NCBI RefSeq assembly: GCF_041886205.1
Contig: NZ_CP169029.1
Length of the DNA: 64,000 bases
Direction: 5' to 3' (one strand)
Source: Escherichia coli
GTDB taxonomy: Bacteria > Pseudomonadota > Gammaproteobacteria > Enterobacterales > Enterobacteriaceae
Part shown: positions 55,040-55,936 of the stretch, in pieces
Numbering within the stretch: the stretch's first letter is position 1
Layout: each line of letters starts with the position of its first letter
The notes under the pieces: model-generated
What the model saw: the letters and a program-made list of their open reading frames with translations, nothing else
What the model was told of the DNA's origin: nothing
The model's database searches: none
Made by a program: the position numbers and the translations under genes

Positions 55040-55936
55040 TTAGTTAATCAGCCTATCAATCTCAGCAAGAGATAAATTTGTCATCTCTGCAACGTCTTCC
55101 CGAGACATCCCTTTACTCAGAAAACGCTGGGCGAATTCCTGACTTACTTCCTGTCTTCCCTGCTGAATCCCTTTCTCAATCCCTTTCTCTTCAAACCACT
55201 GCGCCAGCGTCATCATAGACTTCCCTCCCGTTTCCCTGTCTCTCAGCACACCATAAAACAAATCCGCTTGTTCAGTATGACCGCGTTGCAGCATATAGTT
55301 TTGCATGGCAACTAACTGACTTCCGCTAGTGTACCCTTCGTCAATCAGCGTGACCAGTTGCTCCAGCAATAACATTAAGTCGCGCTGGCGAATATGTTTT
55401 TGCAGTAGTTCGAGAATCGCAATCCGCCGATGTTGCATGATTTCGTCATCCGGTGTGATGGTGATATCCACCAGCGGGAAAGGACTGTTATAGACGCGTC
55501 GCGCCAGCTCCGGCGAGTAAAACATATCAAACCAGCACATTGATAGCGGATAAGGTGTGGTCTCGCCCTGATAAAACAGAATCGGCACTACCAGCGGTAG
55601 TTTGTCGTGATCCGCCTCCAGATGCCGATGCATGGCGGCTATAGAATAACGCATCATGCGAAAAGCCATTTTCTTATCCGGCTTGCTTTGGTGTTCAATC
55701 ACAACATGCAGATAACCGGGATTGCCCCGCATTTGCACGGAATAGAGCACGTCCGTGCTGTGTCCTTTCAGGCTCTCTTCAATGAAACTCCCCGACTCTA
55801 AATGAAGCGTGTTGAGGTCACAAAGTTCGCGTAATTCCACTGGCAAATGTATCTCCAGAAAGTCGCGAGCCGTCTCCGCATGCATTAAAAATTGTTTAAA
55901 TACCGCGTCATGCGGTGTAGTACTCGGTGCATCCAT
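55040..55936 (-). CDS. rpnC: recombination-promoting nuclease RpnC (YadD; Rpn/YhgA-like, transposase_31 family), 298 aa
   Basis: 298-aa ORF MDAPSTTPHDAVFKQFLMHAETARDFLEIHLP... with the N-terminal nuclease region and C-terminal region typical of Rpn proteins; sits between panC and panD. Confidence 0.85.
   Translation of the reverse strand: MDAPSTTPHDAVFKQFLMHAETARDFLEIHLPVELRELCDLNTLHLESGSFIEESLKGHSTDVLYSVQMRGNPGYLHVVIEHQSKPDKKMAFRMMRYSIAAMHRHLEADHDKLPLVVPILFYQGETTPYPLSMCWFDMFYSPELARRVYNSPFPLVDITITPDDEIMQHRRIAILELLQKHIRQRDLMLLLEQLVTLIDEGYTSGSQLVAMQNYMLQRGHTEQADLFYGVLRDRETGGKSMMTLAQWFEEKGIEKGIQQGRQEVSQEFAQRFLSKGMSREDVAEMTNLSLAEIDRLIN

Follow-up and report, generated by a model that had tools for sequence, protein, structure and literature searches.

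Within the Rpn family, RpnA (YhgA) of Escherichia coli K-12 serves as the biochemically characterised example: it is a non-specific endonuclease that depends on Mg and is stimulated by Ca (Kingston et al. 2017, PMC5350276). Overproducing RpnA to RpnD enhances RecA-independent recombination, lowers viability and triggers SOS; RpnC is, among these four active K-12 paralogs, the weakest, its overexpression raising RecA-independent recombination 2.9-fold (PMC5350276). Mutation of RpnA residues D63, E82, Q84, D11 or R94 abolishes or alters activity, with D11A, D63A, E82A and Q84K each abolishing it, and a D165A substitution in the PDDE motif is hyperactive (PMC5350276). Every E. coli rpn gene contains an internal translation start from which a small C-terminal protein, RpnS, is made; RpnS counteracts the long form as its antitoxin (Zhong et al. 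2023, PMC10400941). For rpnC, the short product RpnCS has been detected in K-12 by tagging, and in a K-12 SOS assay the long form, RpnC-L, is neutralised only by an RpnCS of matching repeat number (PMC10400941). The repeat in question has four residues, its number varies between strains, and it has been described together with the length variation of RpnC; free-standing copies of the tail have also been described, and in the proposed Rpn-LS definition the four-residue repeats start 8–20 residues past the internal Met (Zhong et al. 2023, PMC10400941). Variability of the tail is a property of the whole family, and anti-phage activity has been demonstrated for a plasmid member, RpnP2, rather than for RpnC: RpnP2-LS is a toxin-antitoxin that protects against T-even phages (PMC10400941). 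The site between panC and panD that rpnC occupies is unoccupied in Salmonella LT2, and phylogeny points to rpnC having entered that site twice, independently (Kingston et al. 2017, PMC5350276).

The window, by which we mean the whole 64,000-nt stretch of E. coli DNA that was analysed, contains in its six-frame ORF list an ATG-start ORF of 298 aa, closed by a TAA stop, at 55040..55936 on the minus strand. Its neighbours lie on the opposite strand, panC at 53897..54748 (+) and panD at 56210..56590 (+). E. coli LHM10-1 (NZ_CP037903.1) matches the window at 100% DNA identity over 54700-56250 and has the same CDS annotated as 'recombination-promoting nuclease RpnC', with panC and panD on either side. 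The protein is identical to K-12 RpnC (YadD) at 290 of 298 positions (97%) with no internal gap, and this level of identity to a characterised K-12 protein settles the identification. High identity to K-12 RpnC and an antisense position between panC and panD together identify an RpnC orthologue, and the window gene shares with K-12 rpnC and its RpnCS the panC-rpnC-panD locus, the orientation, the catalytic residues, the internal start and the number of EKGI repeats. The two differ in that the window protein lacks the terminal Leu-Ile of K-12 through a 6-bp indel and carries eight substitutions, and in that an ERIC element and 22 bp (11+11) of extra spacer lie downstream. With 54700-56250 as a megablast query, the region was matched in 5425 of 5,426 complete E. 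coli genomes, and we conclude that the position of rpnC is fixed in essentially all E. coli. Its placement within the pan cluster is not new, since it was already analysed by Kingston et al. 2017 (PMC5350276), and rpnC here is an ordinary gene already described in the literature. Taken as a whole, the window rpnC is very probably an intact allele of this known E. coli gene, encoding a single-gene, two-product toxin-antitoxin, with the ERIC element separate from the 2-aa difference in length. Farther away, upstream of panB, a 406-aa ORF with a signal-peptide-like N-terminus (51753-52973) probably belongs to the yad fimbrial cluster.

RpnC belongs to the Rpn family by both of the profile models that describe it. 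Pfam PF04754 (Transposase_31) matches residues 7-207 (55316..55918, minus strand) with E=3.8e-87 and 291.6 bits against a cutoff of 21, and NCBIfam TIGR01784 (Rpn family) matches with 298.2 bits against a cutoff of 52.1; the more specific RpnA equivalog model gives 312 bits, below its cutoff of 583. The Transposase_31 domain holds the PD-(D/E)xK nuclease core. In an alignment with K-12 RpnA, to which RpnC is 49% identical, D10, D62, E81, Q83 and R93 of RpnC correspond to D11, D63, E82, Q84 and R94 of RpnA and are invariant. The core catalytic residues D62 (55751-55753), E81 (55694-55696) and Q83 (55688-55690) span 55688..55753, the further conserved residues D10 and R93 lie at 55907-55909 and 55658-55660, and the PDDE motif, which belongs to the non-core part of the domain and is likewise invariant between RpnC and RpnA, occupies residues 162-165 (55442..55453), reading P162-D-D-E-I166 with the residue that follows; all are encoded on the minus strand. 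The sequence-only reading, which had placed rpnC (yadD) antisense inside the pan cluster at 55040-55936, had taken it for a Transposase_31-related PD-(D/E)xK nuclease and had proposed a check of the catalytic residues, thus agrees on each point with the ORF list, the LHM10-1 annotation, the profile matches and the RpnA alignment. A search of PDB sequences with full-length RpnC returned no relative, and in PADLOC-DB 2.0.0 the nuclease domain was unmatched, the sole match being PDLC01084 'putative invertase' (E=0.0011) at residues 241-271.

Twelve rpnC alleles were fetched, those of K-12 and eleven other strains, referred to below by strain name or by L number. Across ten alleles (the window, K-12 and L003-L010), pN/pS over codons 1-240 was 0.06 (pS 0.15), which indicates strong purifying selection on this domain; over the last 31 codons of the same alleles pN/pS was 0.65. 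Variable sites make up 5% of the N-terminal region and 29% of the tail (Fisher p=2e-4). Purifying selection on the nuclease domain indicates that the gene is functional, with a fast-evolving tail. Judged from its 97% identity to K-12 RpnC, the window protein is probably also a Mg-dependent DNA endonuclease that would be toxic and induce SOS. A separate possibility, that rpnC stands out from its flanks by unusual divergence, was rejected: identity between the window and K-12 is 95.2% for panC, 97.6% for the N-terminal region of rpnC and 99.5% for panD.

Standard annotation of the window misses a second, 58-aa product. Within rpnC, a ribosome-binding sequence GGGAGGGAAG (55220-55229) is followed by the spacer TCT and by two ATG codons, M241 and M242 (55211-55216), so that the whole signal lies at 55211..55229 on the minus strand and can be read directly from the window as GGGAGGG, 7 nt, ATGATG. 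The arrangement GGGAGGGAAG-TCT-ATGATG is conserved in 10 of 10 alleles (the window, K-12 and L003-L010), and M242 of RpnC aligns with M244 of RpnA, an experimentally confirmed internal start (PMC10400941). From this start, and from the detection of RpnCS in K-12, we predict that the window allele encodes a 58-aa antitoxin, RpnCS, in frame with the C-terminus of RpnC-L (55040..55216, minus strand), a gene within a gene. dRNA-seq in K-12 reports an internal promoter for a short rpnCS transcript; a consensus scan inside the window rpnC found no sigma-70-like promoter for such a transcript. One of the substitutions relative to K-12, E239K (GAG to AAG), falls in the internal RBS region (window 55217-55229) and turns GGGAGGGGAG into GGGAGGGAAG; it is also present in L003, L009 and L012. 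This change could alter RpnCS output and so tune the ratio of RpnCS to RpnC-L.

The region following the internal start contains the four-residue repeats (55136..55189, minus strand). In the window RpnC two EKGI units (55166-55189) begin 10 residues after M241 and are followed by a degenerate QQGR-QEVS-QE stretch; the copy number is that of K-12. The repeat type varies by lineage, being EKGI or RQEV, with one to five copies in the sampled alleles. Sampled RpnC lengths were 294, 298, 306, 310 and 314 aa, that is 294+4n, and the 300 aa of K-12 correspond to 298 plus the terminal Leu-Ile. We conclude that most length variation in RpnC is variation in the copy number of this repeat. Differences in length between RpnC alleles should therefore be read as variation in repeat number or as terminal indels, not as damage from neighbouring repeats. 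The tail of RpnA, unlike that of RpnC, lacks EKGI repeats and is unrelated in sequence, although the internal start Met aligns.

In four sampled strains a second, free-standing copy of the tail (rpnCSs, 65-71 aa, annotated 'RpnC/YadD family protein') lies between rpnC and panC; the window contains no such second copy. The window tail at 55043-55135 (FAQRF..MTNLSLAEIDRLIN) has polymorphisms in common with the rpnCSs copies of other strains (for example FAQRF..VTALSLAEIDKLINSN in L009) rather than with K-12, which suggests that rpnC tails and rpnCSs copies have undergone gene conversion or fusion with each other, in line with an earlier proposal (PMC10400941). A Pfam search of the tail did not detect DUF4351 and gave only sub-threshold matches of helix-turn-helix type (HTH_3, E=0.006). 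In a PDB search the 58-aa tail matched a designed 'CAP repeat' protein, 8vd6 (E=4e-8), and, weakly, a helix-turn-helix regulator, with the crystal structure of RpnAS absent from the matches. The weak helix-turn-helix-type matches (55043-55140, RpnCS residues 27-58) are consistent with the three-helix bundle that RpnAS is reported to form.

The 3′ end of the gene is where the window allele departs from K-12 in length. K-12 rpnC has 903 nt and encodes 300 aa; its end reads ATT AAC CTT ATT TAA (..INLI*), whereas the window reads ATT AAC TAA (..IN*), with the indel site between 55042 and 55043, next to the TAA stop at 55040..55042 (minus strand). The eight substitutions relative to K-12 are Q70R, A126T, E239K, L272F, A286T, P289S, K295R and V296L, five of which lie within the last 27 residues. 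In alignments of the alleles the 6-bp insert at the stop takes two forms, CTTATT (Leu-Ile) in K-12 and TCTAAC (Ser-Asn) in UTAK-1 (L013) and in some rpnCSs copies. Three end states thus occur at one position: AAC|TAA (window 55040-55043), AAC-CTTATT-TAA (the K-12 type; L001, 1570-1578) and AAC-TCTAAC-TAA (L013, 1322-1330, and the rpnCSs copies of L007 and L009). These recurrent in-frame indels at a single position look non-random.

The window contains an ERIC element, a MITE of 194 bp (54755..54948) that is absent from K-12, in the interval from the panC stop to a terminator-like hairpin. It has the termini TACTC...GAGTA and is flanked by TT at 54753-54754 (TA in related strains, for example L003) and by TA at 54949-50. 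In K-12, where the site is empty, only one TA is present, and the insertion relative to K-12 amounts to 196 bp, that is the 194-bp element and a 2-bp flank. Its core matches the complement of the primer ERIC1R with two mismatches and ERIC2 itself with one mismatch, both primer sequences having been confirmed in the literature. At the same site strain 2017-02-2CC (L004) has a 123-bp ERIC with exact ERIC1R and ERIC2 sequences. The window copy, L003 and L013 differ from it by an internal insertion of 71 bp (54798..54868 in the window), and it is this insertion that makes the window copy 194 bp long rather than the standard ~127 bp. Longer ERIC variants with internal insertions have been reported. 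In its core, termini and TA flanks, in its intergenic, co-transcribed position and in its presence in multiple copies per genome, the element resembles described ERIC sequences (PMC3184786); the median number of megablast places was five per genome. The intergenic RNA fold at the element has z=-5.5. This panC-rpnC site is filled by ERIC in 427 of 5426 genomes (8%), mostly O157:H7 among the matches listed.

The hairpin, identified in a terminator scan at 54953..54975 (+), has an 8-bp stem and a 7-nt loop followed by ATTATTAATT; it lies between the convergent panC and rpnC genes and is kept in all strains aligned. Downstream of rpnC, 91 bp separate the stop from the near boundary of the ERIC element, and the hairpin lies within this interval. 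Because the element lies on the panC side of this hairpin, it sits in the panC 3′ UTR and does not abut rpnC. The window, L003 and L004 also share 22 bp of extra spacer relative to K-12, arranged as two 11-bp blocks (window 54985-55019); this spacer includes CGCCATCGCCA, giving ATGGCGATGGCG, and adds a small hairpin in the interval from the rpnC stop to the shared terminator hairpin. The extra spacer is missing from UTAK-1, which does carry the ERIC element.

We propose that RpnC-L (298 aa) would act as a Mg-dependent PD-(D/E)xK endonuclease whose overexpression causes DNA damage and SOS induction, as published for K-12 RpnC and RpnA, and that the internal RBS and ATG at codons 241/242 would direct synthesis of the 58-aa C-terminal RpnCS. 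By analogy with K-12 RpnC, RpnA and RpnP2, RpnCS would bind the matching C-terminal helix of RpnC-L and block it, with pairing specificity set by the number of EKGI-type repeats, two in the window allele. RpnC probably acts in phage defence, and RecA-independent recombination would be a side effect; this role is argued from RpnP2, to which RpnC is likened by family and by gene-within-gene architecture, the defence phenotype having been demonstrated for RpnP2 only. In this model rpnC is an old insertion between panC and panD; the ERIC element, a polymorphic MITE, inserted separately into the panC 3′ UTR. The locus thus illustrates points already published, namely a nuclease toxin whose antitoxin is an internal gene and diversification through short in-frame repeats, and it matters little beyond correct annotation.

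We consider it unlikely that rpnC is instead chiefly a selfish or domesticated transposase-like gene, serving RecA-independent recombination and its own spread rather than phage defence, with a C-terminus made variable by its own recombinogenic activity. The 2.9-fold rise in RecA-independent recombination on RpnC overexpression speaks for such a role, but basal recombination is unchanged on deletion of rpnA to rpnD (PMC5350276). Likewise, two independent panC-panD insertions are suggested by phylogeny and the region just past rpnC is plastic, with ERIC in 8% of genomes, rpnCSs in four sampled alleles, an IS1 in ETEC1703 and the three 6-bp end states; however, rpnC itself has neither terminal repeats nor target duplications at its sides, and with 5425 of 5426 genomes matching the region its position is essentially fixed. 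The toxin-antitoxin architecture and the RpnP2 defence data favour defence (PMC10400941).

Much less probable still is that the window allele is decaying or non-functional, its shorter protein marking the start of pseudogenisation. The protein is 2 aa shorter than that of K-12 and its substitutions are concentrated near the end, but the reading frame is intact, all catalytic residues are retained and pN/pS in the nuclease domain is low; moreover, the ..IN* ending is common to most allele classes, and variability of the tail is family-wide.

The sequence-only reading had taken the 298-aa protein to be slightly shorter than K-12 RpnC and had noted an ERIC element on one side of rpnC, which it suspected of having altered the 3′ end. 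Alignment bears out the difference, in length (298 versus 300 aa), in sequence and at the 3′ end, and the element is indeed found on the panC side; its suspected effect is refuted by comparison of alleles with and without ERIC. That reading made no mention of the published intragenic antitoxin rpnCS or of the four-residue repeat behind most variation in RpnC length (PMC10400941). The three ERIC-bearing alleles sampled initially (the window, L003 and L004) all lack the terminal Leu-Ile of K-12, and 382 of the 399 ERIC-carrying genomes that matched a junction-to-stop query were at least 99% identical to the window across that segment. About 3,001 genomes have the K-12-type end, and the sampled allele with that end, K-12 itself, is without ERIC. 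However, the six ERIC-free alleles sampled besides K-12 (L005-L010) all show the ..TAAC|TAA stop context without a 6-bp insert, and the 34 nt past the stop are nearly the same in them as in the window. L005, L006, L007 and L009 end in ..IN*, and L008 and L010 end in ..IS* because their last codon carries an A-to-G change, with an AAC-TAA end found in their downstream copy. Conversely, UTAK-1 carries the same long ERIC as the window yet encodes a 300-aa RpnC ending in ..INSN*, and ETEC1703 (L012) has ERIC together with an intact 298-aa RpnC. ERIC-free alleles ending in ..IN* and an ERIC-carrying allele of 300 aa show that end state and ERIC state are separable, and we conclude that in most strains the two go together through haplotype linkage and not because one brings about the other. 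That the ERIC insertion truncated or rewrote the rpnC 3′ end to give the 298-aa form is close to untenable, given the 6-bp indel at the stop itself and a gap of 91 bp, holding the conserved hairpin and spacer, between the stop and the element.

More speculatively, and in our view rather improbably, the end states (..IN*, ..INLI* and ..INSN*) and the fast-evolving tail might constitute a second specificity determinant, beside the published repeat number, in toxin-antitoxin pairing or in escape from phage inhibitors; separately, and equally speculatively, the polymorphic ERIC between panC and the hairpin might change the stability of panBC or rpnC/rpnCS mRNA in 8% of strains.

Rfam searches of the ERIC region gave only matches far below threshold. 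In one of these, window 54752-54946 aligns with model positions 1-129 of RF02818 'Vibrio RNA AS5', scoring 19.8 bits where the gathering score is 96, and this Vibrio antisense RNA family may itself be ERIC-derived. The left arm of the ERIC of L003 (RM19259, O157-type) contains a tandemly duplicated 7-bp stretch (TGCAACT / CAAGTTG), which the window copy does not have. In ETEC1703 (L012, NZ_CP122923.1, 1933-2712) an IS1A lies 4 bp past the stop of rpnC; its target duplication is 9 bp long, AACGCAGAC. With ERIC, IS1A and tandem rpnCSs copies all found in it, the short panC-rpnC spacer is an insertion hotspot.
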